A stretch of DNA of 64,000 nt from an uncultured delta proteobacterium (GCA_963745035.1 CAVUVW010000013.1:928001-992000), one strand, 5' to 3'; positions 30,697 to 64,000 are shown, numbered from the stretch's first letter. Program-made: numbers and translations. The notes: generated by a model not told the origin, from the letters alone.

Positions 30697-31644
30697 TCAG
30701 GCGCGCTTTTTCGAGCTTTGTTTTCTTGTGGGCGGCGCCAAAAACACGAGCGCGCCGGGATCGACTTTAATCGTGATCGCATGCGATTTGACCGGCAAGG
30801 GCTTGTGCGCGTCGGGCCAGCGCATATCGTCGATGTGAACCGGAGAGCCCTTCCACTCGATCTGGAGATGGCGGCCTTGGCGGCGGCGTGACTTCAGCGC
30901 CGCAGCGGCACCGCCCATCCGCTCCTTCAGGTATTTGTTGAGATCGGCTCGTTTGCCGTAGGGAACCGCAACAATATCCAAAAACCCGTCTTGCGTATCC
31001 GCCTCCGGAGCCAAATTGAGATTCGGTCCGATGAATCTCACGTTCAACGCTTCCAGAAGAACGTATTGGCCTGAAAGATCCTCGCCGTCCAGACGGACCG
31101 TCACCGGACTGGATTTGAATTTGCGGAGCCGCCCTCTGAGCATATCGAGGACCGCGTTCAGCTCTTCCTCGGGATCGTTCGCGTGGGCTAGCTCTTTTCC
31201 ATTCGAAGCTTCGAGCTGAAACATGGTCTCGGCGAATAGTCCGAGTCCAAAGCCTTCGATAAAGTGCGTCGATCCCCACGGGCCTTTCGCCACCCCTGCG
31301 TCGAAATGCACGCTTCGCGCGGCTTTCCATGCCGAGACGAGGTTCTTCGGCTTGCGCTCCGCTATGCCCAGCGAGGAGGCGATATTATTCGCCGTGCCCA
31401 TCGGGATTATCGCGATCGGCGTCGGGCTGCCGATCAACCGCCTCGCCACTTTATTCACGGTCCCATCGCCTCCGGCAACGGCAACCACATCGCCGGGGTC
31501 TTTCAAAATTTTATGCCACTTTTTCTCTTTGGAGGATTGATATTCTACTTTGTGTCCCGCTGCTCGCAGGATCTCCACAAGTTCATCACGAGAGGGTTGC
31601 TTTCCTTTGCCTGCTGCCGGGTTATGAATCAGCGTTATCTTGAT
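30697..31644 (-). CDS. Diacylglycerol/lipid kinase family protein
   Basis: LIHNPAAG, AGGDGT, PMGTANNIA motifs; apparent ATC start. Confidence 0.88.
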   Translation of the reverse strand: MKITLIHNPAAGKGKQPSRDELVEILRAAGHKVEYQSSKEKKWHKILKDPGDVVAVAGGDGTVNKVARRLIGSPTPIAIIPMGTANNIASSLGIAERKPKNLVSAWKAARSVHFDAGVAKGPWGSTHFIEGFGLGLFAETMFQLEASNGKELAHANDPEEELNAVLDMLRGRLRKFKSSPVTVRLDGEDLSGQYVLLEALNVRFIGPNLNLAPEADTQDGFLDIVAVPYGKRADLNKYLKERMGGAAAALKSRRRQGRHLQIEWKGSPVHIDDMRWPDAHKPLPVKSHAITIKVDPGALVFLAPPTRKQSSKKRA

Positions 31645-49802: not shown

Positions 49803-50324
49803 TGCCAACTCCTTTACCTTCGCCGTTCCACACCATGCGCCGAATTTCGCATCGCCACCGCGGCATGTCAAAGGCCACCACCCGAGCGAGACCGCGCGTG
49901 TATCAAACACTTTCGGATTCGCAGCGCCATGCTCGGCGCGATGGGCATGCAAGCGCCGCCGGGTAAAAAATTTTGTTGATGATTTTTCCGTCTGAGAGAT
50001 GCCGATCACAGCGTCCCGAAACCGCCACGGCCCGAGTCGCTGTGGAACAATTGTCGAAGAAGCGCTACGCAATGTTAGAGAGCACAGCGTTCGAAAAGAG
50101 CATTTTCATGGGTCAAGCGAAAAAGAAATTGATCGCCGCGGACGCGCTGGTCGCGTCGCCGAATCGTAAACGAAGTTTCCTCTAGATATATTTGCTTCTC
50201 ATTCTGCAAAAATCTCGACCTGAGTATCCCTTTCAACTGGCGTCTCCGCTCGCAAGATTGCCAACCTCGGCGATTTGCGCTAACGACCTGTGCCGTGCCT
50301 GAAAGAACGCACGGAGGCGAAGAA

Positions 50325-51398
50325 ATGGACATCGACTTTGTCACCAACCAGGAAATTATCGTCGCGGCGCGGCGCAACCTGACCGACAACGTCTGGCACT
50401 ATCTCACCGGCGGCGCCGAATCCGAAACCACCATGCGGCGCAATCGCTACGGCTTCGACAGCCTAGCTTTTCGTCCGCGCGTGCTCGTCGATGTTTCCAA
50501 AACTAATTCCTCGACCAGTTTTCTCGGCCACAAGCTAAAGATTCCCGTCATGCTCGCGCCCATCGGCTCGCTCCAATCGATCACGCCGGAAGGCGGGGTC
50601 GCCGTTGCGAGAGCCGCCGAGGAATGCGGCACGATCAATTTCGTCAGCTCGGTCACCCAACCGAGTTTGGAAGAGATCGCCGGCGCCGGCGGCAGCCCAA
50701 AAATATTTCAACTCTACGTGCAGGGCGATCTGACCTGGGTGGAAAATCTCTTGTCGCGGGTCAAGCGCGCCGGCTATGCGGCGCTCTGCCTTACCGTTGA
50801 CACTGCGCACTATGGACATCGTGAGCGGCAAATGATGGATCGCTGGCTGCCACCGAGCCGGCGCGGCGCCGGGTACGAGTATCGCGCGGCCCTCACCTGG
50901 GAGATCCTCGATGCGATCAAAGAAATGGCCGGGCTGCCTTTCATTTTAAAAGGGGTCGCCACTGCGGAAGATGCGGCCCTTGCAGTGGCGCACGGCGTCA
51001 ACGCGATTTACGTCTCCAATCACGGCGGCCGCCAGCTCGATCACGGGCGCGCGACCATCGACACGCTGCCGGAGATTATCGCCGCCGTTGACGGCAAAGC
51101 GGAAATAATCCTGGACGGTGGTATCACGCGCGGCAGCGACGTGCTTAAAGCCATTGCACTGGGCGCGCGCGCCGTCGCCATCGGCAAGCTGCAAGGATGG
51201 GGCTTGGCCGCCAATGGACAAGCAGGTTTAGTGCGCGTTCTGGAAATTCTCGAAAGTGAAATTGTGACAACGATGGGTCTACTCGGCGTCACGCGCCTGG
51301 ATCAACTTAACCCGGCCTATCTGTCCAAAGTGCAGCCGGTGACGCCGGCCCATGAGATGAGCGCGTTCCCACACCTGCCCGGCGGCCGCTTGTTGTGA
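50325..51398 (+). CDS. FMN-dependent alpha-hydroxy-acid oxidase/dehydrogenase
   Basis: SNHGGRQLD, LTVD, ILKG, DGG..RG.D..KA.ALGA. Confidence 0.93.
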   Translation: MDIDFVTNQEIIVAARRNLTDNVWHYLTGGAESETTMRRNRYGFDSLAFRPRVLVDVSKTNSSTSFLGHKLKIPVMLAPIGSLQSITPEGGVAVARAAEECGTINFVSSVTQPSLEEIAGAGGSPKIFQLYVQGDLTWVENLLSRVKRAGYAALCLTVDTAHYGHRERQMMDRWLPPSRRGAGYEYRAALTWEILDAIKEMAGLPFILKGVATAEDAALAVAHGVNAIYVSNHGGRQLDHGRATIDTLPEIIAAVDGKAEIILDGGITRGSDVLKAIALGARAVAIGKLQGWGLAANGQAGLVRVLEILESEIVTTMGLLGVTRLDQLNPAYLSKVQPVTPAHEMSAFPHLPGGRLL

Positions 51399-51437
51399 AA
51401 CTGCGGCAAGCACCAAAGCCCTTGCGAACTTCTTCGG

Positions 51438-51496
51438 TGGTGCCCGGAGCCGGACTCGAACCGGCACAGACCTTTCGGTCCGAGGGATTTTAAGTC
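51438..51496 (-). repeat. att site: 59-bp duplicate of the tRNA-Leu 3' portion
   Basis: Identical to 61399-61457. Confidence 0.95.
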
Positions 51497-51823
51497 AGGG
51501 AAACATTCTCGCCAAAATGCATCAACTGACATCAAGGCGCATTATCGCAGCAGTTTCGTGCTGCCGGCAGTGCGGTTTGGTGTCGGTTGGTGTCAGTTAG
51601 TACGGCTACAGCGTAAGCTACACACCGCGATAAGCTACAGATCAGCTACAGCCGCGGCGCGTTCAATCGGCGCGCAATCGATCACTCAAACCCGCAGCGA
51701 AAATCACGGCAGAGACGGTAGCGCACGCCATGGCCGCGGGATTCTAGATCCCGTGTACCGCCCTAAATATCGTATCAGAAAAGGTTTTTTGTTCGCTGTA
51801 GCCTAACTGTAACTAACGATTCA

Positions 51824-52327
51824 ATGTCTGACGAAGCAACGGCAATCCAGAAAGCAGAGCACAAAGGCCCAGGCGGTGCACGTGCCGGCGCCGGTGCGCC
51901 CAAGGGCAACGGCAACCGCCGAACGCACGGCCTTAGATCATTACAGAAGGCATGGTCACAGCTTGGCAACCGGGTGATCGATGGGCGATCCCCCGCGGCC
52001 GTGGCGCTTCGGAAGTGGCGCGCGAATGTGATTGAGGATCTTGGTGGCCGGGAAGCGATCAGCACGCAACAAGAAGCGCTGATAGACCTGGCGTGCAAGA
52101 GCAAACTGCTACTGGATAGCGTCGACGCCTGGCTGATGACTCAGCCAAGGCTGGTTAATGCGCGCAAGCGTTCTCTCATCCACGTAGTTCTTCAGCGCCA
52201 GACCCTTGCCGATGGTCTTGCGCGTTATCTTTCGCAGCTTGGACTTGAGCGCCGGCGCAAAGTGAAAACCATCACCGACCTGCTCAACGGCGATACCGAG
52301 CAGCCGCAAGGCGACACCCGCCAATGA
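51824..52327 (+). CDS. Putative terminase small subunit
   Basis: GGARAGAGAPKGNGNRRTHG motif and LGLERR C-terminus; upstream of TerL. Confidence 0.65.
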   Translation: MSDEATAIQKAEHKGPGGARAGAGAPKGNGNRRTHGLRSLQKAWSQLGNRVIDGRSPAAVALRKWRANVIEDLGGREAISTQQEALIDLACKSKLLLDSVDAWLMTQPRLVNARKRSLIHVVLQRQTLADGLARYLSQLGLERRRKVKTITDLLNGDTEQPQGDTRQ

Positions 52328-52332
52328 CCGCG

Positions 52333-52668
52333 TTAACGGAGAAAACGCATCCTGGGCAGATTGGGACGGGAGCTGTATGGAACGGTTACATGTGGCAAAA
52401 CGGAGAGCTTTTCCAAGTAGATAGTTCCGCTCCGGCACCTCACGTACACCGCCTGGCAGGTTGCACACACAAGCGCACTTTCAAGCGCTCTTTTCCGGAG
52501 AAATATGAGTGCTCCTTGGGTGTGGCTGGAAAGTCGAGAATATTCCGATCTTTCAAGCGGCCTTTGGATTCCGTCTTTACAATTGCTCGGGCATCTACTT
52601 TTCATATCGGCCTTCAGTTTTTGTACGTTCGTACTTTCTCCGCAATCGCGGGGGCAATCCTTTCTCAT
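52333..52668 (-). CDS. Small Cys-pair (Zn-binding?) hypothetical protein
   Basis: CPSNC...CATC; lies between 16-bp direct repeats. Confidence 0.4.
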   Translation of the reverse strand: MRKDCPRDCGESTNVQKLKADMKSRCPSNCKDGIQRPLERSEYSRLSSHTQGALIFLRKRALESALVCATCQAVYVRCRSGTIYLEKLSVLPHVTVPYSSRPNLPRMRFLR

Positions 52669-52709
52669 AAAGCCGGTGACGAATCAAGCCCACGTTGGAG
52701 CACACACGA

Positions 52710-53063
52710 ATGACCGCGTTAACGCAGCCGGTTGACGAGACCGGCCCTGTCACAGGCGCAAAGCGCACAGAAGGCGTCAATCTAGTCGTTACGACTAGCA
52801 GGGAGCATTTTGAGCAATGTGCTAACCCGTTTTGCAGGACCGCTATCCACTCCCTGAACTCGGGACGCTGGCGACGGACCCGGCGGCGCTTCTGTTCTGA
52901 CATCTGCAAGTATGACTTTCACGCGTTGAAGCGCATCAAGCCGTTACTCGCCAAGGTTGGCGTGATCCGGTTTCACGAACTGCTGGACGAATTTGGGAAG
53001 GCCACGGCGTCACGGCGCTCAGAGCACGGAGAACCGCCAAGAATCAACGCACAACGCCGATGA
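52710..53063 (+). CDS. Phage Zn-finger-like hypothetical protein
   Basis: CANPFC...RRFCSDIC; GGAG upstream. Confidence 0.6.
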   Translation: MTALTQPVDETGPVTGAKRTEGVNLVVTTSREHFEQCANPFCRTAIHSLNSGRWRRTRRRFCSDICKYDFHALKRIKPLLAKVGVIRFHELLDEFGKATASRRSEHGEPPRINAQRR

Positions 53064-53081
53064 AGGGGTTAGGTCCGGTCA

Positions 53082-53252
53082 ATGACGTTTATCCGCCCCA
53101 CGCTGGAAGATGGCCGACATGTGCTTATCCGGGCTGATCTTATCCAGCAGGTAAGGCAACGCGAGACCGGCGCCGAGATATGGCTACCCACCGCCGTTGT
53201 GGCCGTAGTCGACACCATCGACCAAATACAGGCCATGCTGAGGGACTTATGA
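53082..53252 (+). CDS. Small phage hypothetical protein (56 aa)
   Basis: MTFIRPTLEDGRHVLIRADLIQQV...VVDTIDQIQAML, translated by hand (below the ORF-track cutoff). Confidence 0.5.
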   Translation: MTFIRPTLEDGRHVLIRADLIQQVRQRETGAEIWLPTAVVAVVDTIDQIQAMLRDL

Positions 53253-53333
53253 CCGACGCCAACGTCAAGCGCCTGTTTCCCCGCTCAGCGGTTGGCCAGC
53301 ATCAAGGCGCGCGCAGAGAAAAAAGGCATCCCG

Positions 53334-53540
53334 CTATGAGCGAATCAGCAACCAAAGAAGATGCAAAAATCCACGTCCCCAAGTGCCGTTTGGACTTACC
53401 CAATAGCGGGAGTTGCAATCACGGCAGGCAATTAGCTGTGCATTTATGAGGCTGCTCAACAAGAGTTCCCAGCGGCTGCGATGAGAGCGCTCGAAGCTAT
53501 GACTGCGGCAATGCGGGCATGAATACAACACAGTGACCAC
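53334..53540 (-). CDS. Small zinc-ribbon protein
   Basis: CPHC...CRDC. Confidence 0.5.
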   Translation of the reverse strand: MVTVLYSCPHCRSHSFERSHRSRWELLLSSLINAQLIACRDCNSRYWVSPNGTWGRGFLHLLWLLIRS

Positions 53541-53560
53541 CGATTATCACACAGGATCCA

Positions 53561-55038
53561 ATGGCCATGACCAAACTGATTAACCCTATCACCTTCATCG
53601 ACAAGCTGGTTAAGAAAAACGAGCTTGGCCAGCCCTTCACGCTCAGCGATCACCAGCGGGAAATCCTGCGACTTGCCTTCGCCTTCGGTCCAGATGGCCA
53701 CCTTCAATACGACACGGTCGTTTACAGCTGCCCCAAGAAGAGCGGCAAAACCCTCGTGAACGCCGCGGTAACGCTCGCCTGGGCCTTCACTCAGGAAGCG
53801 CCGAACGAAATACTAATCCTCGCCAATGACATGGAGCAGTCCTTGGCGCGCGTCTTCCGCACTATGGAAGGCATCATCCAGCACAACCCCGAGCTACGGC
53901 GGGAAGCCGAAGTACAGGCCAAAACGATCTATCTCGCCAACGGCACGATCTTGACGGCCATTAGCGGCGATTACCAGGGCGCCGCGGGCAGCAATCACGG
54001 CTTTGTGAGCTATGACGAGCTTTGGGGTTACACGTCTGAAGCATCCATCCGGCTATGGGAAGAGTTAACGCCGGTTCCCACACGCAAAAACTCTATCCGG
54101 TTCATCACGACCTATGCCGGTTTTGAAGGCGAGTCGAAATTGCTTTGGGACCTATACCGCCAGGTGATGAGCCTCGATGAGCACCCGGAGGGACAAGGCG
54201 AGCGCCTTCACCCCGATTTGCCGATCTTCGGTAACCGCGAAGCCCGGATCTTCGCCTACTGGGACCATGAACCGCGCATGCCGTGGCAGACAGAGGCTTA
54301 CTACGCGAGCCAGAAACGCGTTCTCCGCCCCGGTACGTATCTCCGCCTGCACGAAAACAAGTGGGCGAGCGCGGAAGAGATTTTTATTTCCGGCAATCTT
54401 TGGGACCCATGCATCGTCCGCACTCCGCTGCCGGCCTTTACGGGCCCTGTGCAGCAGATTGTGGCCGACCCCTATCAGCTGCACAGATCGATCACGACGC
54501 TCAAGAACGCCAGCATTCCGATCAAGGAATTTCCCCAGACGCAAGCGAACTGCACGCTCATGGGGCAAACCCTCTTCGACCTGCTCAACGCAATCTGGTG
54601 ATGTATCCGGCCGATGATCTACGGAGCCAGGCGCTAAGCACCATTGCCGTCGAGCATCCCCGCGGCTGGAGAATCGCGAAGGAAAAGGCATCGAAGAAGA
54701 TCGACGCCATTGTCGCCTTGGCCATGGCGTGCTGTGCCGCAATCGAGCGCGGCAAGACACCCGGGCTTTTCGTCGGTGTGGATGCCGGCATCAAGCATGA
54801 CTGCGCGGCCGTGGTTGCCGTGGCGTGGGGCAAAGAGGCGGACAAATTGTATTTGGTGAGTCATAAAATCTGGAAGCCCACGCCGGAGAACCCGCTGGAT
54901 ATTGAGAACACAATTGAGTGGTATCTCCGCCAGCTCTACACCCAACACCATCACGGGCTCACGGGTGTCGGGAAAGTCCAAACCGACTACGACCCGTTTG
55001 AAAGAGCGAAGGAGCAAGAGCGGAGGCTCGATGGCTGA
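53561..55038 (+). CDS. Terminase large subunit (Terminase_1 type); frameshift near 54590 and reordered nuclease motifs
   Basis: Walker A PKKSGKT, Walker B YDELW, ITTYAG, DPYQ, EFPQ, KIDAIVALAMA, VGVD..IKHD. Confidence 0.88.
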
Positions 55039-55222
55039 GTGCCAAGCCGAGAAGTGCCCGATGGGCAGAGTAGCTAACCGCCACGATGGGATGGACCCGT
55101 ACTGCTTTTGGGTGTGCGGTTTACGGCCGCCTGAGCCAGCCAAAATCGTGGCCATTACCGAAGGGGTGCGGGAATCGGAAAACGTTGCTAGCGAATACGA
55201 CCCGTATCGCGAAAGGTGGTGA
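55031..55222 (+). CDS. Small Cys-rich hypothetical protein
   Basis: GGAGG RBS; MAECQAEKC...YCFWVC. Confidence 0.5.
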   Translation: MAECQAEKCPMGRVANRHDGMDPYCFWVCGLRPPEPAKIVAITEGVRESENVASEYDPYRERW

Positions 55223-55283
55223 GAGCATAGCTAAGTATCAAACCGAAGTGACCGCCTATTAACCCACAACCAAAGAGGGAAAA

Positions 55284-55721
55284 ATGATCTTCGACAAACA
55301 AAATAGCTTCGATGAAAACGCGGCAATCACCGTGACGCGGGACTCGACCAACATTATTGACCTCGGTGTGGCCACACCGAATATTGCCGGGAGCGTGGTC
55401 GGGACACTAGATATAGCGATCATCGTGACAGAGACCTTCACCGCCGATGGTGCGGCAACGCTCCAGATATGCTCAGCGACGGCCGATAATGAGTCTCTGG
55501 ATACGCCGACGCTTCTGGATCGGGTGACGTTGGCTCTCGCGGATTTAGCCGTAGGCCGTCCTCCAATCGTCCTTCAACTTCCGCAAGCGACGATCCAGCG
55601 CTATCTCGGCCTTATCTACACCGTCGCCACCGGTCCGATGACCGCCGGAAAGATCACGGCCAGGATCGCGGCTGATGTGCAGTTGAGCCACGCGTACCCA
55701 AAAAACTTCGTGGCTGTCTGA
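55284..55721 (+). CDS. Bbp16-like capsid cement/decoration protein
   Basis: MIFD...F....AIT....STN.IDLG; RYLGLIYTV..GPMTAGKITA. Confidence 0.82.
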   Translation: MIFDKQNSFDENAAITVTRDSTNIIDLGVATPNIAGSVVGTLDIAIIVTETFTADGAATLQICSATADNESLDTPTLLDRVTLALADLAVGRPPIVLQLPQATIQRYLGLIYTVATGPMTAGKITARIAADVQLSHAYPKNFVAV

Positions 55722-55762
55722 GGTTCTACTAACCTACAAACTCAAAGAAGGAGAAAACGACC

Positions 55763-55975
55763 ATGGATCAATCAGAAATCTACCGCGAGCAGCGCAAGCG
55801 CGACGATGAAATTCTTGCGGGCGTGCAGCCGCGAATGAAGGCACCGGCGGGTTGCAAGCACCCTGAAGATTGTCAGCTGGCGAAATTGCGAAACCAGTGC
55901 GGCGCCAGCTTTCCGTCATTCTGTTACTCGAATTGCCAGCTGCCGGGCGCGATCAACGATCCGGCGAGGAAGTAG
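55763..55975 (+). CDS. Small Cys-rich hypothetical protein
   Basis: AAGGAG RBS; five Cys residues. Confidence 0.55.
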   Translation: MDQSEIYREQRKRDDEILAGVQPRMKAPAGCKHPEDCQLAKLRNQCGASFPSFCYSNCQLPGAINDPARK

Positions 55976-55981
55976 GCTACC

Positions 55982-56614
55982 ATGGAAACACCAGAACGAA
56001 GCATCGCGGATATACTGTATCCGTCGCAGAATCAGGATCGGCCGGCAGCTCAGCCAGGTGCAGCAGAGCGCACGGTTGCGGAAGTGCTGTACGGGAAGGA
56101 ACCCGCCAAGGAACCCGCGAAGGAAGCGCCAAAGGCCGAGCAGCCCAAGAGCGACAAGGCAGACGGCAAAAATTACCTTGACAAACTGGCCGAGGATGCG
56201 GTCGCCGCGGATCGCTACGATTTGAAGCTTCCCGATGGGGTCCTTGTCGACGAGCCGTTGATGCGTGATTTTAACAAGCTTGCGCGCGAGCACGGGTTCA
56301 ACAACGACCAGGCGCAGCGCTGGGCGGACTTGCACCTTCGCGCCATTGGAGACGTGCACCGGCAGGTCGCCGAATACGAACAGGTCAGCGAGGACCGTTA
56401 CACCGAGGTCAAAGGCTGGGAGACGGAATTTCAAAACGATCCGGAGTTTGGCGGCGCTAATGCCAAGGAGACGATAGCGCAGGCGCGCCAGGCGCTCGAA
56501 TCATTCGGCACACCCGAAGAAGTCGCGCGGCTAACAAAAGAGCTTGAGCGCACCGGGCTCGGCAATCATCCGATTCTCATCAAGGGATTGGCAAAGTTAG
56601 CCCAATATCTTTGA
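55982..56614 (+). CDS. Phage head scaffold-like protein (epsilon15/BPP-1 type)
   Basis: YDLKLPDG, A.E.G....QAQ, W.....DPEFGG, FGTPE, TGLGNHP. Confidence 0.78.
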   Translation: METPERSIADILYPSQNQDRPAAQPGAAERTVAEVLYGKEPAKEPAKEAPKAEQPKSDKADGKNYLDKLAEDAVAADRYDLKLPDGVLVDEPLMRDFNKLAREHGFNNDQAQRWADLHLRAIGDVHRQVAEYEQVSEDRYTEVKGWETEFQNDPEFGGANAKETIAQARQALESFGTPEEVARLTKELERTGLGNHPILIKGLAKLAQYL

Positions 56615-56652
56615 GAGCATCGGCGACGGCCGCATCCGTCACGGCGGGCCGC

Positions 56653-57609
56653 CTGACTTTGAGACCTTGAAAAACCTGCCGCCGATAACGACCAAATCGG
56701 ATTTTGACTGTCGGGCGGCACCGTGGGGAAATTGGGACCCGCGGCGCCGGGTATGGTGCGATGCTGGTGGAGGCTAGGAGAGATGGCGCCTGGCGGGTGA
56801 ACTAGCACTTCGCCCTGAGTGGAGAGTCGCAACGACCCTACGCCCTCAACGCAGCTCGACAAATAGCCAACGGGACAGTGGAGGCCTCGGCCCTTATTTT
56901 TTTACCAAACGCGCAGTAAAAACCGCCATCGGGCAGACGGCGCAACTCAAAGCATAAAGTGCCCTGCAATCTGTCCACTACCTCCCAGGCGACAGCGATG
57001 TCGGTGGAAGGGCAAAACTCAGACTTACGGCGATACCCACTGTCAGTAGCCCACGGAATTATGCCGTCAATCCATGTACCCGTAGCATTTCGCCACCCCA
57101 TCACTTTTCCGGCAATCAACGCATCTAGTTTTCGCCCGGCTCTCATTTCATCAGTATCCATGTCCATGCGTCTCCAAATTCTGGCTCCTACACCCAAACG
57201 CAAACCCGTGCGGCTTCACGCTTCGACGTGGTCCAGCTCTGGATGACCAATACGTCCCAGACCAGGGCACCGTGCAAAAGATGTGGTGAGGAATTATGAC
57301 TGTACCATGCCCGAAGAAGAAACAGTACCTTCCGTGATTTTTGGTAGTGTCTCAAAACGCCAGCGGTGCCGAGTCCAGGGCGGCCAGGACGCTCATCGCA
57401 ATCGTTGTTGAATAAAAACAGAGCAAAAATGTAAGGCTGGCTAGGACAGCTTTGCAGAAGGTTTTCATGGTGCGCCCTCCCCGTTGTCGGTAACTGGAAG
57501 CGGCGCTGCTATACTCTCATTCGGGATTCAGGGCAAACACCATTTTAGGCCCTCTGACTTTGAGAGGTTAAAAAACCTGTCTCCGATAACGACCAACCAG
57601 GATTTTGAC
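56653..57609. repeat. Pair of ~56-bp imperfect direct repeats (56653-56708, 57554-57609)
   Basis: ctgactttgaga..tt.aaaaacctg...ccgataacgaccaa...ggattttgac at both sites. Confidence 0.8.
56838..57167 (-). CDS. Phage ABA-sandwich domain (BC1872-like) protein
   Basis: GR.LDALIA.KVMGW, PSTDIA.AW.VV, PLAICRAAL. Confidence 0.75.
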   Translation of the reverse strand: MDMDTDEMRAGRKLDALIAGKVMGWRNATGTWIDGIIPWATDSGYRRKSEFCPSTDIAVAWEVVDRLQGTLCFELRRLPDGGFYCAFGKKIRAEASTVPLAICRAALRA

Positions 57610-57678
57610 GTGCGCCGATTGGCCGGGACGTGGGGAGATCCGCGGCGGCGGTGATGCAGAAACCGACCACGCTTAGCA

Positions 57679-57969
57679 CTAAAGCTCCAGGCCGCCAATG
57701 TCTTCGATGGACCGTCCAACGTGGGATTTCAAGAATACTGAGAAACGATGACAGAAGCGGGAGTTGTCAAAAATCAACCTGCCGAGATACGGAAGATCGT
57801 TGCTTGTAATGTAAATATAGAGGGCACGGGCTGACTTCGGGTCGTTGGCAACGTGTGTTAGAACCCCGATTTCGCCGGTCAGAGTTGTCTCGCCATATCT
57901 TTCCTTCCAGGCTGGCGGCCAAATTCGCCCCTTGGTGTTGCTCATTAGCGGATGATGCCGAACTTTCAT
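57679..57969 (-). CDS. Hypothetical protein
   Basis: Open frame; WPP.W and G.SI.DIG.LE motifs. Confidence 0.55.
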   Translation of the reverse strand: MKVRHHPLMSNTKGRIWPPAWKERYGETTLTGEIGVLTHVANDPKSARALYIYITSNDLPYLGRLIFDNSRFCHRFSVFLKSHVGRSIEDIGGLEL

Positions 57970-58116
57970 TGAGAAACCCTTATCACGTCGGTTCGCTGGC
58001 GTATATCTCTCTCATCTGCGCTAACAAATGTTTTTCGGCTGACGATGGGCATCCGATAAAGTACGAAATTACACTGGGTCTATTTTGAAAAAAGCTTGAC
58101 TCAAGGGGATTCGGTT

Positions 58117-58290
58117 TTAAGTGAAACCGGTGATGTGATGCCAAGGCACGGTTTCACCGTCTGGCTTATTCTGGCAGTGTGGGCAAGCTGCTTCTCTGGC
58201 GTATTGGATGATTCTTTCGCCGGGCTTCAATTCAACCTCGAAAGTCTCCCGGCACTTCTGGCATCTCAATGTCCATATCCCCCGGTCCAT
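58117..58290 (-). CDS. Small zinc-ribbon protein
   Basis: GGAGG RBS; CQKC...CPHC. Confidence 0.55.
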   Translation of the reverse strand: MDRGIWTLRCQKCRETFEVELKPGERIIQYAREAACPHCQNKPDGETVPWHHITGFT

Positions 58291-58762
58291 AGCTTTATTG
58301 TCCCCTCCGCGCGTAAGAGCCGTCGAGTACGCAAGAATCCGAAGCAAGTGTCAACGGGAACTTTGCAATGTCCGTAAGACGACAAATAAAGTCGTCTATC
58401 TTTTACCCTCTCGCGATTTTTGTTTGCTGACTTTTTCGAGAGCCTTCTGGATTTCGAGGATTAGTTTTTCCTGTTTCTCTGAAAGCTTTTTGGACTGCTC
58501 TAACAGCCTGCGACTACTTTCTAACAGCTGCTCTACTTCCTTCGGCATTCGGACATGATACTATCTCGGGTTTGGTCAGCCAAGTATGTTGTTAGAAGAA
58601 TGCACGAGACTAGAAGTCGAGATGTTCCGAGAAAACAAATAGAACTGCACCACTACTTCTTCTCCCCCGCAAGAAGCGCCGGACCCTTTCGAGCCCGGCC
58701 CCCTTATGCAAAACCAGTTAAACTTGCGCCGCGGTTCTCTTCCCGTGTAAGAAATATTCCCG

Positions 58763-59433
58763 ATGTACGGGCACGAAACATCCATAGAGCGGCGCTACAA
58801 AGGCTTTCGCATCTACGGCGACGCGCGTAGCGTGCACAATGAGTCGCCGCGATGGTTCGCGGTCGGCCAAGTTTTTGTCGACATGCCGAACGGCTCGCTC
58901 TATGGCGTCGAAAACTTCTCGGACCCATCTTTGGCCTATGAGGACGAGGAGCTGGCGGCGTGGTTTGGCCTAGGCCTGGCGGAAATCGTGGTGGATCACC
59001 TGGTGCCGCCAGCGGAGTACTACTTGACGCCGATGAATCCGGCATGGGCGGTGGATCTGCTGCGCCGCGGGGCGCGGGACGTGGGCAAGCTCCAGTTGGT
59101 GAAACTTTACGAGGGGATGAAGTATCTGGAAAAGTCGCTCGACGAAAGCCGTGGCTGGTGCGCCGCTATCGCCGCACGCTGGAGGGCGACACCCGCAACG
59201 AGAGCGACGAAAAACGGAATCGCCGTCGGCTCGGCCTCATGGCGCGGGAGATTGAGCGCGTTTGCGTGGAAAAAATCGTCGGCGGAAATGAACGAATCGG
59301 CGCGCCGCTACCGCGAGAACAAGCGCAAAATCGACTGGCTCCGGCGCGTGCTGGAGCTGGTGCGCGCGCCAGTGAGTCATTCGCGCACTACCCGGTGCGC
59401 TTCTTTATCCTCTCGCAAACCTGCAAAGCTTGA
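58763..59433 (+). CDS. Hypothetical protein, apparently frameshifted
   Basis: Protein-like sequence shifts between ORFs 58763 and 58960 near 59145 (KPWLVRRYRR..). Confidence 0.45.
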
Positions 59434-59692
59434 ATGCCTGAGATGGCCGTCGGGCGTCCACTCGGTAAACTCGATCTGAGCGACGAGCGCCACCGGTTAA
59501 CGCTCCAGCGGCGCGCCCGCGCTTAGCTCGCCTCCAACTACTACGGAATGGGTTCTTACCTGTGGGTCTGCGATCTGCTCGACGTTGAGCCGTCATGGAT
59601 TCGCCGGCGCATGATCCGAGTGTTGAACACTGGCGAGGTGGGCAAGCAGGGCGACGGCGCATTCAGCGTGGCGCGGCTGGCGGCGATTGTGA

Positions 59693-59968
59693 TCAGAGGC
59701 GGGAACTGCTTTCCATTCTTCGGTCTTCAATGCTTAAACCGTCCGGCCGACAGCGAATTTGAGCGAGAAAATCTGGACGAATCGCGAACATATGTTTGAG
59801 CAAGTCTAATTTCTCGGCTCCACAGAGGATGCGAACAACAACGGCACCATTCTCATCATAAACGACGATGCCGTTTTTCAACAAAGAGTATTGGGGTGAC
59901 CGCCGGGTAAATTTCGCGACGCAACGTAAGTAAATCGCGATGGGAATTTCAACGATAAATTCTTGCAT
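59693..59968 (-). CDS. Hypothetical protein
   Basis: Open frame with GGGGGA upstream; Y.LLKNGI motif. Confidence 0.45.
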   Translation of the reverse strand: MQEFIVEIPIAIYLRCVAKFTRRSPQYSLLKNGIVVYDENGAVVVRILCGAEKLDLLKHMFAIRPDFLAQIRCRPDGLSIEDRRMESSSRL

Positions 59969-60262
59969 AACTTATCCCCCCAAAGCGTGCCGTTAATAGC
60001 ACTATACGTAGTAAAGTCCAACCTCTTTTTTAGCGGCGACGTAAAAGATGTGCCTCCTGCACTTCAAGCCGCAGCATACGGCTATCCTTGCGAACTATGC
60101 ACCATTTTTGTGAATTATGCACCATTTTTGCCGATGTGGTCTCTCTTTCAAACAGTTGTTTGTGCTCCAGAAAGTCCTAGAAACTCCTTAATCCTACGCT
60201 TCGAGGTTACGGCAAAATCTTTGCTTTCAACTCTTCTGATCGAGGTTGGTTGATATAACACA

Positions 60263-60622
60263 GTGATCCTACTCGTTGAAGACAATGCGATAAGCAGGCA
60301 TGCGCTTGCTGCGATCCTTGTTAGATGGGGGCACGAGGTTATCCAGGTATCAGACGGCGAGCACGCGATTACCACGCTCGCAGAAGGGCACCCGATCACA
60401 CTAGTGATCACGGATTTGGCAATGCCCAAAATGACGGGTTTCGGTGTGCTCACCCATATCCATCAAAGATGGCCAAACCTTCCGGTAATCTTGACTACGG
60501 GTTACCTCTCGCCCCAAGTGGCAGAGTCAATCCTGAATGAGAATGTTAAATTCCTTTCTAAGCCGATAGACTTGAATGAGCTGCTCACCACTATTGAAGG
60601 ATTCACCGCTCCCAGTGTTTAG
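60263..60622 (+). CDS. Stand-alone response regulator receiver
   Basis: LLVED, ITDLAMP.M.G, ILTTG, FL.KP. Confidence 0.92.
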   Translation: MILLVEDNAISRHALAAILVRWGHEVIQVSDGEHAITTLAEGHPITLVITDLAMPKMTGFGVLTHIHQRWPNLPVILTTGYLSPQVAESILNENVKFLSKPIDLNELLTTIEGFTAPSV

Positions 60623-60640
60623 CGCAAAGAATGTCTGGGG

Positions 60641-61102
60641 ATGAGCTACGTCTGGTGCTCGTGTTCCCCAGCGGCTTTTGGACCTATGTCACACGCTAAA
60701 GCCCTACGAGTGATCGGGCAGACACTCGATACTGCCGGGATAACGACGTTCAAGTTGCACAAATGTGCGGAGTTTTACCGCTTATGGACCGCCGAGTATG
60801 TGTTCTGCTTCGCGGCAAATGATATTTGCCGTCTCGATAGCAAGGCGCAAAAGAGACGAAAAAACAATTCAACGCCAATCCGATCAACATTGCTCTCTCA
60901 TCAGCTGCGGGCTTTGGGCGATTATCTTGATAGAAGGGAAGTAACCACGTTTCGCATCGTGTGGACGGCTGATTCTGCTCTTTTAGATTACGAACAACTT
61001 GACGGAGACCGAACAAGTAAGGCTTTTACACCTGAAGAATTGCGACAGCTGGGTCTACACCGAAGTTTGTTCCGCTCCAGCCAGTATCTTCTGCATCCCT
61101 GA
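60641..61102 (+). CDS. Hypothetical protein with an internal repeat
   Basis: LRVIGQ.LD / LRALGDYLD duplicated motif; start possibly 60686. Confidence 0.65.
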   Translation: MSYVWCSCSPAAFGPMSHAKALRVIGQTLDTAGITTFKLHKCAEFYRLWTAEYVFCFAANDICRLDSKAQKRRKNNSTPIRSTLLSHQLRALGDYLDRREVTTFRIVWTADSALLDYEQLDGDRTSKAFTPEELRQLGLHRSLFRSSQYLLHP

Positions 61103-61398
61103 TAGTATTCGCATCGCGGACGACCGGTTGATTTTTTAGCTGCCCAATCACTCTCTGCTTACCTCAAGCTTGAAGACTACGCGGGCCGCTGATAATTGGT
61201 TTTTTTCTTGTTGCCTGCAATACTGCCAGCAGAGACGCCTACCTCATTCAGATCAGGCAGATCGATGAAGCCTATCGAAATCAGGAAATTTCTAAGGCCG
61301 AGTATCTTAGCCTCAAAATGCAAGCGGAGAACGCTTATCTGCAAAGAAAAACAACAATCGCAGCGGGGGGCAATCTCTTCCCCTCGCTGACGAAATCT

Positions 61399-61487
61399 TG
61401 GTGCCCGGAGCCGGACTCGAACCGGCACAGACCTTTCGGTCCGAGGGATTTTAAGTCCCTTGTGTCTACCTATTCCACCATCCGGGC
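61399..61487 (-). tRNA. tRNA-Leu(TAA)
   Basis: GCCCGGA acceptor stem, AGGGA-CTTAAAA-TCCCT anticodon arm, long variable arm, GGTTCGAGTCC, CCA end. Confidence 0.97.
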
Positions 61488-61594
61488 GCAAAGGAATTCC
61501 ATAACTTGGGGAACCGGCGTTTTCAACCAGTTCGTCTTTCAGCCGAAAAGCAATTCGAGTGGCCCGAGGGCGGCGAATGCAGAGGGTCTACAGG

Positions 61595-61807
61595 TCAGAC
61601 AGATTTTTGCTCAGAGCGGAATTGGTCAAACTCAAGCTTGGGGATACCGAGGGCGCGCAGCGTATAGTAAGTCTCGCCCTCATGCGCCCGATCCAACACA
61701 GTTAGGACAAGCTCCTCCAAGAGCGCTTTGGATTTTCCATTGTCGTAACGCTTCGGAAAGTGTTCGGCCCAGAGTTCTTTAATTTGCCAGCTACTCAGAT
61801 TGTCCAT
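61595..61807 (-). CDS. Small hypothetical protein
   Basis: 70-aa ORF with protein-like composition. Confidence 0.4.
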   Translation of the reverse strand: MDNLSSWQIKELWAEHFPKRYDNGKSKALLEELVLTVLDRAHEGETYYTLRALGIPKLEFDQFRSEQKSV

Positions 61808-61914
61808 TGAACGCTGCCGGGCTGAACCGGCCGAAGTCGCAGCACGATGCGCGAGGCCAGACAGCTTACGTCTGGCACATCATGTTGATCGCCTGGCTTA
61901 ACACGCGGCCCCGC

Positions 61915-64000
61915 CTACACAAACAACGGCGCGAGCACCAGCGTGATCGTCGCCAGAAGCTTGATCAACACGTGCAGGCTCGGACCTGCGGTGTCTTTGA
62001 ACGGATCGCCGACCGTATCGCCGACCACCGCGGCTTTATGCGTATCGGAGCCCTTGCCGCCGTACGCGCCGGACTCGATAAATTTCTTGGCGTTGTCCCA
62101 AGCGCCGCCGCTGTTGTTGAGGAACGTCGCCACCAAAATCCCGGCGATGGTGCCGACCATCAGAAAAGCCGCCACCGCTTCTGCGCCGACGCCGAACATG
62201 CGGAAGATCAGCCCCACCGCGACCGGCGTGAGAACCGCGATGGCCCCCGGAAGGATCATCTGTTTAAGCGCGCCGACGGTGACGATGTCGACGCAACGCG
62301 CGTAGTCCGGCTTAACGGTGCCCTGGAGTATGCCGGGATTTTCTTTGAATTGCCGTCTGACCTCATTGATAACATAATAGGCGGCTTTGCCCACAGCGCG
62401 AATCGCCAAAGCGGAAAACAAAAATACTAGAGTTGCACCCAGCAGGCCGCCGACGAAAATCTCCGGCTTGGCGATATTGACCCCCTCCAGTTTGGCACCG
62501 TAGTGATGCACTTCGTCGAGGTAAGCGGAAAAGAGCAGAAACGCGGCGAGCGCCGCCGAGCCGATAGCATAGCCTTTCGTGAGCGCTTTTGTGGTGTTGC
62601 CGACCGCGTCCAAGCGATCGGTCTTGTGCCGCACCTCCTCGGGTTGCCCGCTCATCTCGATGATGCCGCCGGCGTTGTCGGTGATCGGTCCGAAGGTATC
62701 CATTGCGAGGATGTATGCCGCGGTTCCCAACATTCCCATGGTCGCCACCGCGGTGCCGAATAAGCCAGCGTTGGGCACGCCGCTCGCGGAGCCGAGAAAA
62801 TATGCGCCGAGAATGGCGATCGAAATTACGATGACCGGGGGGAACGTACATTCGAGACCGACCGCGATGCCGGTGATAATATTGGTCGCCGGGCCGGTCT
62901 GGGAAGCTTCGGCGATCTCTCTCACCGGGCGGTATTTGTATTCGGTGTAGTACTGCGTGATGTAAACAAACGCTTGCGCCATCAAGATGCCGATGACACC
63001 GCACAGGAAAAAGTAGAACCACGCCGAAGTCGCCTCGGGATGGGCGGCCGGGTCCACGGCAAGGAGCCACTTGGCCGAAAAGAAAAATCCGACGATGGCG
63101 AGCGCGCTGGTCACGTAGTAGCCGCGGTTGAGCGCGTTCATCGGGTCTTCGTCTTCCCGGCATTTAACGATCATGACGCCGACGATCGAGGCCAACAGAC
63201 CGAAGGCGCGCGCAACCAGCGGGAAGAGAATTCCCTTCAGGCCGAAAAACGGGTACAGACCGACGCCGAGAATCATCGCGCCGATATTCTCGGCAGCGGT
63301 GGATTCGAACAAATCCGCGCCGCGGCCGGCGCAATCGCCGACGTTGTCGCCGACGAGATCGGCGATGACCGCCGGATTGCGCGGATCGTCTTCCGGTATG
63401 CCGGCTTCGACCTTGCCGACCAAGTCGGCGCCGACGTCGGCCGCTTTGGTGTAGATGCCGCCGCCCAATTGGGCGAACAGGGCGACAAAAGACGCGCCGA
63501 AGCCGTAGCCGACGATGGTAAACGGAATTTTTTGCGGATCGTGGCCGAGGGTTTCCAAAAGCGCATACAAGCCGCCGACTCCGAGTAGGCTCATGGCGAC
63601 GACGAACAGACCGGACACGGCGCCGCCGCGCATGGCGATCTGCAGGCCTTCGTTGAGACTTGACCGAACAGCCGATGCCGTTCGAATGTTAGCGCGGATC
63701 GATACCCACATGCCGACGTAACCGGCGACCACTGAACAAGCTGCCCCTAGGGCGAAAGATAACGTCGTCCAAAAGGCCATCTGCACCGGCGGCACCGGAT
63801 CCGCCGGACTGGGCGTGCGGAAATAGGCGTAGAGAATAAAAATCAGCACCGCCAGAACGGCGGAGTAACTCACAATCGTGCGATTTTGCCGCGACAGGAA
63901 CGCCTCCGCGCCCTCTCTAATCGCGTTGGAAATCTCCTGCATTTTAGGTGTACCGGTGTCGCGCTGCATCACGTAGCGGGCCAAATAGACCGCAAAGGCC
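61915..64000 (-). CDS. hppA: Membrane H+-translocating pyrophosphatase, K+-independent type (5' end beyond the window)
   Basis: GGGIYTKAADVGADLVGKVE, DNVGD, GNTTKA (Lys marks K+ independence), GDTVGDPFKD. Confidence 0.95.
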   Translation of the reverse strand, partial: AFAVYLARYVMQRDTGTPKMQEISNAIREGAEAFLSRQNRTIVSYSAVLAVLIFILYAYFRTPSPADPVPPVQMAFWTTLSFALGAACSVVAGYVGMWVSIRANIRTASAVRSSLNEGLQIAMRGGAVSGLFVVAMSLLGVGGLYALLETLGHDPQKIPFTIVGYGFGASFVALFAQLGGGIYTKAADVGADLVGKVEAGIPEDDPRNPAVIADLVGDNVGDCAGRGADLFESTAAENIGAMILGVGLYPFFGLKGILFPLVARAFGLLASIVGVMIVKCREDEDPMNALNRGYYVTSALAIVGFFFSAKWLLAVDPAAHPEATSAWFYFFLCGVIGILMAQAFVYITQYYTEYKYRPVREIAEASQTGPATNIITGIAVGLECTFPPVIVISIAILGAYFLGSASGVPNAGLFGTAVATMGMLGTAAYILAMDTFGPITDNAGGIIEMSGQPEEVRHKTDRLDAVGNTTKALTKGYAIGSAALAAFLLFSAYLDEVHHYGAKLEGVNIAKPEIFVGGLLGATLVFLFSALAIRAVGKAAYYVINEVRRQFKENPGILQGTVKPDYARCVDIVTVGALKQMILPGAIAVLTPVAVGLIFRMFGVGAEAVAAFLMVGTIAGILVATFLNNSGGAWDNAKKFIESGAYGGKGSDTHKAAVVGDTVGDPFKDTAGPSLHVLIKLLATITLVLAPLFV

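Follow-up and report, generated by a model that had tools for sequence, protein, structure and literature searches.

In an uncultured delta proteobacterium, a 10-kb island inserted at a tRNA-Leu(UAA) gene carries genes for phage DNA packaging and head assembly with no capsid gene among them. The reading we prefer, although with no more than even confidence, is that this island is a defective, dead member of a family of satellite-like, tRNA-integrating islands that possess a complete terminase of their own. It lies in a stretch of 64,000 nucleotides (GCA_963745035.1, CAVUVW010000013.1:928001-992000), here called the window, from whose first letter all positions are counted unless a contig is named. 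The copy in the window is most likely decaying and, because its integrase and replicase are lost and its gene for the large terminase subunit (TerL) is frameshifted, likely immobile. As an apparently dead copy, the locus is useful mainly as a pointer to the family.

The boundaries of the island are direct to observe. A 59-nt direct repeat, 100% identical in its two copies, encloses the element (Table 1): the right end is formed by the intact tRNA-Leu(UAA) gene and the left end by a displaced copy of its 3' part. Such an arrangement is what site-specific integration into a tRNA gene, in its 3' half, classically leaves behind, and foreign DNA bounded by such a repeat places the element among tRNA-integrated genomic islands. 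Both flanks are housekeeping genes, recognised by Pfam in a search that took in three flanking ORFs: an FMN-dependent dehydrogenase on the left (50295-51398) and an H+-pyrophosphatase on the right (61915-63984). In relatives, tRNA-Leu(UAA) adjoins the pyrophosphatase gene as it does in the window, and all seven of the tRNA-Leu loci fetched from them are without similarity to the island interior; in one (G015) the dehydrogenase gene is separated from tRNA-Leu by 1.5 kb of unrelated sequence, and the pyrophosphatase gene comes after the tRNA. These loci were reached from the right flank, since a search from the left flank for the empty site found orthologues with no tRNA in the 1.5 kb fetched. 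Three relatives carry 10-18 kb inserted 5' of the same tRNA-Leu(UAA) (L279 in G003:C22, L274 in G006:C23 and L275 in G018:C46), for which reason we regard the site as an integration hot spot. None of the three inserts is similar to the window island; in G003, 42 nt repeated from the 5' part of the tRNA adjoin the pyrophosphatase gene.

To establish what the island lacks, its open reading frames (ORFs) were searched in Pfam, ten of them also in PHROGs, and the whole genome (92.6% complete) was interrogated by six-frame profile searches. No island ORF matched an integrase, replicase, portal, capsid or tail family (Pfam; ten ORFs in PHROGs), and no regulator of the AlpA, MerR or Stl type was found among those searched in Pfam. 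The integrase profile PF00589 has 20 matches in the genome, none of which lies on C13, the 1.97-Mb contig that holds the island; the PrimPol profile PF09250 has a single match, on contig C26, and none in the window ORFs. Seven further families, comprising four of portals, two of capsids (GP7 and HK97) and one of S78 prohead proteases, with adaptor and connector families not among them (PF20911, PF12236, PF04860, PF05065, PF04586, PF06074 and PF05133), have no match anywhere in the genome, although PF20911, PF12236 and PF06074 were silent in control genomes as well. A tblastn search of the genome with 11 phage proteins from related loci (two capsid, five portal and four others) also gave no match. 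The original prediction, made from sequence alone, had described a 59-bp att (attachment site) duplication beside tRNA-Leu and had found no integrase, portal, major capsid, tail or replicase ORF; both statements are borne out, the former by a repeat of tRNA positions 31-89 and the latter by the island ORFs and the genome-wide profiles alike. It had further recognised a co-oriented block of TerS-like, TerL, Bbp16-like and scaffold-like genes. All four do lie on the plus strand and TerL does contain terminase domains (phrog_9), but the prediction overlooked a 4-bp deletion that interrupts TerL, and it overlooked that Bbp16 and the scaffold gene stand in the opposite order to that of phages, with Bbp16 first.

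Comparison with paralogues in the same genome shows that the arrangement is not unique to the window. A tblastn search with 14 island ORFs revealed related terminase pieces at about nine places on seven contigs. The closest copy, on contig C26, sits at a tRNA-Glu gene and is diverged by about 14% from the window copy: window positions 53348-54585 and 54589-56652 align to it at approximately 86% identity, the TerL-Bbp16-scaffold junctions are the same in both, and similarity ends at 56652, 38 nt past the scaffold stop. This sister copy forms part of a tandem island array (Table 1), in which copies of the tRNA-Glu 3' end, 46 and 28 nt long, enclose a 17.3-kb element (C26:60230-77557) that reads, in transcription order, TerS, Zn ribbon, TerL (permuted, see below), Bbp16, scaffold, cargo, PrimPol/PriCT/AAA_25 and integrase. 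Its integrase is clear (PF00589, 3.6e-18); its PrimPol/PriCT/AAA_25 gene is split into three ORFs. A more distant cousin in a related genome (G003:C32) spans 12.7 kb between copies of a repeat of at least 46 nt derived from tRNA-Arg. It comprises TerS, Zn ribbon, a canonical TerL of 689 amino acids (aa), two ORFs of no assigned function, a split ligase, MerR, a 608-aa PrimPol/AAA_25 protein, HTH_17 and a split integrase, and shows no structural family match. The unpublished genome G005 is not among the genomes on which our claims are based. In a third island, at a tRNA-Gly on contig C7, a TerL fragment abuts the receiver and 153-aa genes that are also found in the window, and an integrase-like ORF is kept next to the tRNA. 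Compared with the C26 and G003 elements, the window copy is without the replicase-integrase end and has a lower-GC patchwork in its place; since sister and cousin elements carry both genes, we attribute their absence from the window to loss. The C7 island also belongs to a tandem array (G000:C7:27885-38922, with tRNA-Gly repeats at 31233 and 27885), and many more tRNA 3' fragments (Thr, Arg, Ser, Ala, Phe, Met and Leu) lie dispersed through the genome.

A capsid-less block that was merely a duplicated relic should show neutral divergence between its copies, and this one does not. The ratio of nonsynonymous to synonymous substitution rates (dN/dS) between the window and C26 copies is 0.225 for TerS, 0.40 for Bbp16 and 0.42 for the scaffold gene; for three segments of TerL it is 0.165, 0.127 and 0.08, the lowest value belonging to 54589-55038, which contains the permuted junction. 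A synonymous excess is present in every shared gene (Fisher p from 8e-4 to 1e-16). Purifying selection in all shared genes, together with identical junctions, implies that the layout was maintained, and the capsid-less combination of packaging and head-accessory genes therefore looks like a maintained design rather than the outcome of random decay. The inactivating lesions differ between the two copies and must thus be recent.

Table 1. Features of the island and of the sister array on contig C26 (window positions unless C26 is stated; aa, amino acids).
Feature	Position	Strand	Basis or remark
Distal att copy, duplicated tRNA-Leu(UAA) positions 31-89	51438-51496	minus	Direct repeat
TerS-like gene, 167 aa, helical; P27/HK97-type small-terminase-like fold	51824-52327	plus	Predicted fold
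Repeated insert of ~390 bp between TerS-like and Zn-ribbon genes	52315-52727	plus	Repeat family D4; 27-nt direct repeats at ends
ORF of 129 aa inside the ~390-bp repeat	52324-52713	plus	No Pfam match; probably not a gene
Zn-ribbon-like ORF, 122 aa	52695-53063	plus	Travels with TerS-like gene and TerL; no Pfam or PHROG match
TerL 5' ORF: ATPase domain and middle of nuclease domain	53561-54601	plus	phrog_9 1.1e-22; PF03354 1.1e-4
4-bp deletion shifting the TerL frame	54586-54588	plus	DNA comparison with C26 copy
TerL 3' part, other frame: C-terminal nuclease helix KKIDAIVALAMA, then relocated first strands GLFVGVDAGIKHD...	54589-55038	plus	phrog_9 and phrog_2699
Bbp16-type capsid cement (decoration) gene, intact	55284-55721	plus	PF21190 1.5e-22; phrog_427 9.8e-30
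Scaffold-like gene, intact	55982-56614	plus	phrog_458 2.2e-29
0.9-kb segment between 62-nt repeats (84% identical)	56647-57609		Repeat family D2
Phage ABA-sandwich-domain gene in the 0.9-kb segment	56838-57203	minus	PF18066 9e-15
Cargo/mosaic region, where integrase and replicase would be expected	57679-61102		GC lower, 47-54%
Single-domain response-regulator receiver	60263-60622		PF00072 1.6e-21
Proximal att copy, 3' 59 nt of tRNA-Leu(UAA)	61399-61457	minus	Direct repeat
tRNA-Leu(UAA), intact	61399-61487	minus	ARAGORN; Rfam tRNA 59 bits; only tRNA found by ARAGORN in the window
tRNA-Glu 3' copies on C26	C26:60184-60229, 77530-77557, 98939-98964		Tandem island array (C26:45717-98964)

The head-accessory genes are unusual in their order. 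Assignment of the first to Bbp16 is secure (80.5 bits to PF21190 against a cut-off of 27.1, over 113 of 115 profile positions), and the window and C26 proteins are 82% identical. In the window Bbp16 comes first, the scaffold-like gene follows 260 nt later, and there is no capsid gene. Phages have the order scaffold, a capsid gene of about 1.2 kb, then Bbp16: this holds for all 57 IMG/VR loci in which both a scaffold homologue and Bbp16 are detectable, with the scaffold homologue 1129-1759 nt upstream of Bbp16. In one such locus (L001) the gene between the two is a GP7-type capsid (PF20911, 1e-125), accompanied in the locus by a T7-type portal. Relative to the GP7-type head module, then, the window has the accessory genes reversed and the capsid gene missing. 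Bbp16 was found in none of 60 genomes of relatives, and a scan of the genome collection with the scaffold protein gave 93 pattern matches, none of them confirmed. By tblastn, the Bbp16-bearing phages L001 and L002 gave no match to the window TerL. The packaging genes and the head-accessory genes of the island stem from two different phage lineages.

TerL itself provides the most unusual single feature of the locus. Set against what defines the protein, a Walker A/B ATPase and an RNase H-like nuclease in one open frame, the window gene has the domains and motifs (KKSGKT and SYDELW in translation), but its frame is broken and its nuclease is out of order. The match of the 5' ORF to PF03354, at 22.5 bits, falls just below the cut-off of 23.7. 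This ORF stops prematurely after the frameshift; at the site of the deletion, intact relatives read LFDLLNGRNLVMYP. The C26 gene is also broken, by one extra G (a 1-nt frameshift) earlier in the gene and by an IS110-family transposase (PF02371, PF01548; C26:73106-74317, L261:14107-15315) that lies 8 nt from the position of the window deletion, a proximity which could be coincidence or the footprint of a site-specific insertion sequence.

As far as the order of its segments indicates, the nuclease domain is circularly permuted: some 65 aa, holding the first strands and the first acidic motif, appear to have moved behind the C-terminal helix. The first-strand segment (LFVGVDAGIKHD...IWKPTP...) is not in its usual place before VQQIVADPYQ, but sits after the C-terminal helix (KKIDAIVALAMA...ERGK). 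Normal order is seen in the TerL copy on contig C6 and in the intact 689-aa TerL of G003. A database search with the C-terminal part of the window TerL returned proteins colinear with it over 80-100% of that part, and the permuted order recurs in ten of 163 collected relatives (P0074, P0044, P0048, P0054, P0061, P0041, P0110, P0121, P0130 and P0135), the first six being full-length proteins of 467-491 aa. An alignment of nine sequences shows no variation in the acidic residues of any of the three nuclease motifs. The existence of intact colinear relatives and the conservation of these residues argue that the permuted order is not a product of decay.

Compared with the PDB, the TerL profile finds chain 6z6d_A ("Terminase large subunit", E 1.6e-6) as its closest match, which we take to be the terminase of phage HK97. 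The match is confined to the ATPase and C-terminal nuclease parts, as expected if the last TerL segment is out of order. An AlphaFold2 (AF2) model of the permuted protein, built from nine sequences, is poor, with a predicted local distance difference test score (pLDDT) of 44.3; its secondary structure opens with a strand, continues with helices and closes with three strands and one helix. The permuted forms do not fall into one group in a tree of the ATPase part (96 sequences) or in a short and weak tree of a nuclease segment of 110 aa (136 sequences), for which recombination or repeated origin may be responsible. A genome scan with the permuted TerLs found five loci, all canonical; a metagenome scan for the permuted C-terminal part found at least 69 which, together with earlier loci, gave at least 97 with both segments, 97 being canonical and none permuted among the matches listed. 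No report of a circularly permuted terminase nuclease domain was found in the portion of the literature that our search returned. A naturally permuted TerL nuclease that is under strong purifying selection and recurs in intact proteins from metagenomes offers a new handle on how terminase nucleases fold and couple to the motor.

Upstream of TerL lies the presumed small terminase. The protein has no Pfam or PHROG match. Its AF2 model (12 homologues, pLDDT 67.7) is helical; a comparison with predicted viral structures in BFVD gave 16 best matches of which 15 bear the name small terminase or P27 family (E 0.03-0.4), while the PDB gave no match at E <= 0.001, with the HK97 small terminase 8pop_A at rank 23 (E 3.5). 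Homologues stand immediately upstream of TerL in 12 other loci. From the predicted fold, the product is probably TerS-like. The Zn-ribbon ORF that follows has tblastn matches beside terminase pieces on contigs C21, C26, C20, C6, C5, C12 and C7, and also at L187 and L225. Between these two genes lies the repeat of about 390 bp, other copies of which occur on contigs C20 (96%), C26, C21 and C25; it gives no RNA fold signal (z 0.46), and the 27-nt direct repeats that bound it contain the start motif ATGACCGCGTTAACG.

Taken together, the sister and cousin elements show how the fuller members of the family are built. In transcription order they have att, a P27/HK97-like small terminase, a Zn-ribbon protein, an HK97-like large terminase, a variable slot, cargo, a PrimPol/AAA_25 primase-helicase, in some cases HTH_17, a tyrosine integrase and att, with no portal, capsid or tail genes. 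In the sub-lineage of the window, the variable slot is filled by the Bbp16 cement and scaffold-like genes of an epsilon15/BPP-1-like head module, minus its capsid gene. A working member would excise and replicate with its own primase-helicase. Anatomy, paralogues and purifying selection are directly observed, and dependence on a helper, packaging and capsid remodelling are what we infer: a helper phage would provide procapsids and tails, the island's own TerS-TerL would package island DNA, and the scaffold-like and cement proteins would remodel or stabilise the helper capsid. More tentatively still, the islands may be an undescribed type of helper-dependent satellite that combines integration and replication resembling those of phage-inducible chromosomal islands (PICIs) with a complete TerS and TerL and no capsid, one sub-lineage of which would use a borrowed epsilon15/BPP-1-like scaffold and cement pair to remodel the helper head together with a functional permuted TerL, the whole being active in soil bacteria without known satellites. 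This wider proposal is possible but, in our view, less likely than not.

The most serious alternative, though in our view an unlikely one, is that the island is the remnant of a complete temperate phage that once had portal, capsid and tail genes and became a mosaic relic through deletions and recombination between islands. The broken TerL and the missing integrase and replicase would be natural in such a relic; the right third of the island is a patchwork common to other islands, the genome is full of fragmentary terminase relics, and the island includes a gene with a phage ABA-sandwich domain. A capsid gene could also once have stood behind the scaffold gene, where it is normally found. What speaks against a remnant is that two copies 14% apart share the same capsid-less junctions and are under purifying selection in every shared gene, that no fragment of a portal, capsid or prohead protease (seven families) was detected anywhere in a genome with terminase pieces at some nine places, that sister elements with att bounds measure 12.7 and 17.3 kb, too small for a virion module, and that Bbp16 stands before the scaffold gene, unlike in any of the 57 phage loci.

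The neighbours of related TerL genes bear on the same question. Distant TerL relatives occur in ordinary phages beside portals: a portal-sized ORF lies within 1 kb after TerL in 58 of 69 IMG/VR loci, which hold distant TerLs, against none of 18 genome and metagenome loci with closer ones, and at L108 and L114 such ORFs are portals. (A scan of IMG/VR with the single G003 TerL gave no match; an alignment of TerLs was needed as query.) The portal family PF04860 is absent from all five TerL-bearing relatives.

Several observations weigh against a capsid-less satellite family, and they must be set beside those above. The contrast of 58 of 69 with 0 of 18 compares sets drawn with different queries from different collections, and the size of a downstream ORF is a crude proxy for a portal. 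At L107 (8070-13471), whose TerL is 62% identical, TerL is followed by an 860-aa tape-measure-like gene and a tail-assembly gene with no portal-sized ORF, as if head genes had been deleted; at L191 (9941-13260), again with no portal-sized ORF, a 105-aa ORF and then an S78 prohead protease come after TerL. S78 proteases make up three of 150 pooled neighbour ORFs (among the best 25 of 81 Pfam families). The TerL clade is thus heterogeneous, and by their gene content loci of the L107 and L191 type look like phage deletion derivatives or capsid-forming elements. The label TerS depends on predicted-fold matches that are sub-threshold. The Bbp16 and scaffold sub-lineage is seen in this genome only, in two copies. 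No fully intact member has been seen: the C26 element has its TerL frameshift, IS110 insertion and split PrimPol, and that of G003 a split integrase and ligase, although some of these breaks, in draft assemblies, could be assembly errors. Finally, no helper phage is known, and the public data consist of contigs, with no reads showing excision.

On this evidence the two readings offered by the original prediction can be judged. Its candidate phage satellite stands as regards a genuine tRNA insertion and a capsid-less layout that, from the C26 copy and dN/dS, seems maintained; it is not supported as regards a working satellite, for this copy has no integrase or PrimPol and its TerL is frameshifted. 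The alternative that it named, a heavily decayed mosaic prophage, is weakened by the maintained layout and kept alive by the structural genes after TerL at L107 and L191. Of the checks it had proposed, dN/dS came out below neutrality in all shared genes (0.08-0.42), contrary to the neutral evolution that would have told against a satellite, and the search for a helper prophage or integrase elsewhere in the genome yielded the 20 integrase matches off contig C13 but no portal, capsid or prohead-protease match.

Terminase-, cement- and scaffold-like proteins might instead serve no packaging device at all, but be kept as cargo for anti-phage interference or defence, or for some other DNA-handling role. 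Purifying selection in the absence of any virion genes would accord with this, as would the intact state of the TerS-like, Bbp16 and scaffold genes in a window copy that cannot move; interference genes are common on satellites and islands, and PMC9618062 counts small terminases among them. We nevertheless find such a role improbable: PADLOC gave no family match in ten island ORFs, TerL is broken in both copies of this genome, and the genes occur in att-bounded elements that have an integrase and a replicase, a setting that suits transfer better than domestication by the host.

Island DNA is also present in public metagenomes. It was detected in 20 runs of six studies (rhizosphere, soil and winery metagenomes), at 26-79% of sampled words. 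The public data being assembled contigs, four runs from four studies were aligned to 50500-62500, and in these near-identical short contigs cover most of the island. Across the frameshift site, one contig of run X5 has four extra letters along with 32 other differences and so represents an in-frame variant. Contigs of X1, X8 and X5 join 56706 to 57625, with the ABA-gene segment absent and about 23 nt in its place. No joint across the whole island occurs among the 15 joints listed (of 24), bins of X1 without cover being uninformative here. The contigs demonstrate the presence of the island and some polymorphism, and say nothing about mobility. We give very little credence to a reading in which the window copy can still be mobilised by integrase and replication functions acting in trans, its TerL frameshift being either an assembly error or tolerated: the perfect 59-nt att copies, the intact TerS-like, Bbp16 and scaffold genes, the near-identical DNA in so many runs, the in-frame X5 variant and the integrases elsewhere in the genome would suit it, but the 1.97-Mb contig has no integrase and the island no replicase, sister and cousin elements have their own of each (hence loss here), no indel at 54586 is among the differences listed for contigs closely matching the window, and the contigs listed contain no whole-island joint.

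The right part of the island, beyond the scaffold gene, is of a different character. Its first 0.9 kb is flanked by the repeat unit D2, which also occurs as single copies at C13:354229-354343 and C26:175293-175441. The cargo region that follows encodes proteins of 96, 76 (Zn ribbon), 238 and 91 aa, a receiver-domain protein and a protein of 153 aa; only the receiver has a family match. The region is a patchwork, 78-97% identical to segments on contigs C7, C17, C20, C26 and C14. The family of the 96-aa ORF (57679-57969, minus strand) has about 40 tblastn matches in the genome and that of the 153-aa ORF (60641-61102, plus strand) about 17, neither with a Pfam match; their copies are often clustered and often in or near islands. 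Receivers are carried by two islands of this genome, that of the window and that on contig C7 (G000:C7:33537-33893), and also adjoin terminase islands in unrelated genomes, a Verrucomicrobiia and a Nitrospira metagenome-assembled genome (L188:4297-4701 and L191:3756-4094). Rfam finds only the tRNA on the island.

Among systems already described, PICIs are the nearest in plan. In the account of de Sousa et al. (2023, PMC10085698) they typically have no phage structural gene besides terS, terL being a mark of capsid-forming PICIs (cfPICIs). Like PICIs as so described, the fuller relatives of the window island are about 10-17 kb long, att-bounded, and equipped with a tyrosine integrase, a primase-replicase and a small terminase, G003 adding HTH_17 and MerR as regulators of the AlpA/MerR type; the window sub-lineage, moreover, carries genes of the capsid-morphogenesis type. 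Unlike PICIs, the islands carry TerL besides TerS, and the window copy is without three of five core components (integrase, regulator and replicase). Where capsid-morphogenesis genes help to define a PICI, the scaffold-like and Bbp16 genes could supply them, yet the presence of TerL runs against the exclusion of motor genes that forms the other half of that definition. For cfPICIs the same paper lists a large terminase, terS, integrase and primase, plus capsid and head-tail adaptor or connector genes. The islands resemble these in having their own large terminase with terS and, in the fuller relatives, integrase and primase; they differ in that capsid, portal and prohead protease were not found in the genome (seven families, three of them without a control match, adaptor and connector families not included). 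Marine virion-encapsidated integrative mobile elements (VEIMEs), as presented in PMC9618062, are small integrative elements that have an integrase, a primase-helicase, AlpA and in some cases a small terminase, and that lack a major capsid gene; they are credited there with small terminases and 'motor-like ATPases', the helper being expected to supply the large terminase. In contrast to VEIMEs so described, the islands carry TerL, and the window sub-lineage scaffold and cement genes as well.

A cryptic prophage would share the frameshifted TerL, the missing integrase, the mosaic cargo and the many relics in the genome; it would not be expected to show a capsid-less layout common to diverged copies under purifying selection, nor a genome in which no virion-gene fragments are detected. 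In its parts, the island recalls two phage types. The match of TerL to 6z6d_A and the predicted resemblance of the TerS-like fold to P27/HK97-type small terminases are those of an HK97-type terminase, from which the window TerL differs in its apparently permuted nuclease. Bbp16 (PF21190) and the phrog_458 gene are head accessories of the GP7 type, as in the epsilon15/BPP-1 head module with its GP7 capsid (PF20911).

Known satellites either borrow the large terminase of the helper, as P4, PICIs and PICI-like elements (PLEs) do, or build a whole capsid, as cfPICIs do. Those that borrow can reshape or stabilise the helper capsid while using the helper large terminase: P4 with the external scaffold Sid and the decoration protein Psu, the Staphylococcus aureus pathogenicity islands (SaPIs) with CpmA and CpmB, and PLE with TcaP. 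The scaffold-like and Bbp16 pair may be a functional analogue of these proteins, to which it has no sequence relationship. If our proposal is correct, a complete terminase and capsid accessories without a capsid would constitute an intermediate satellite strategy, and would extend satellites to uncultured soil lineages.

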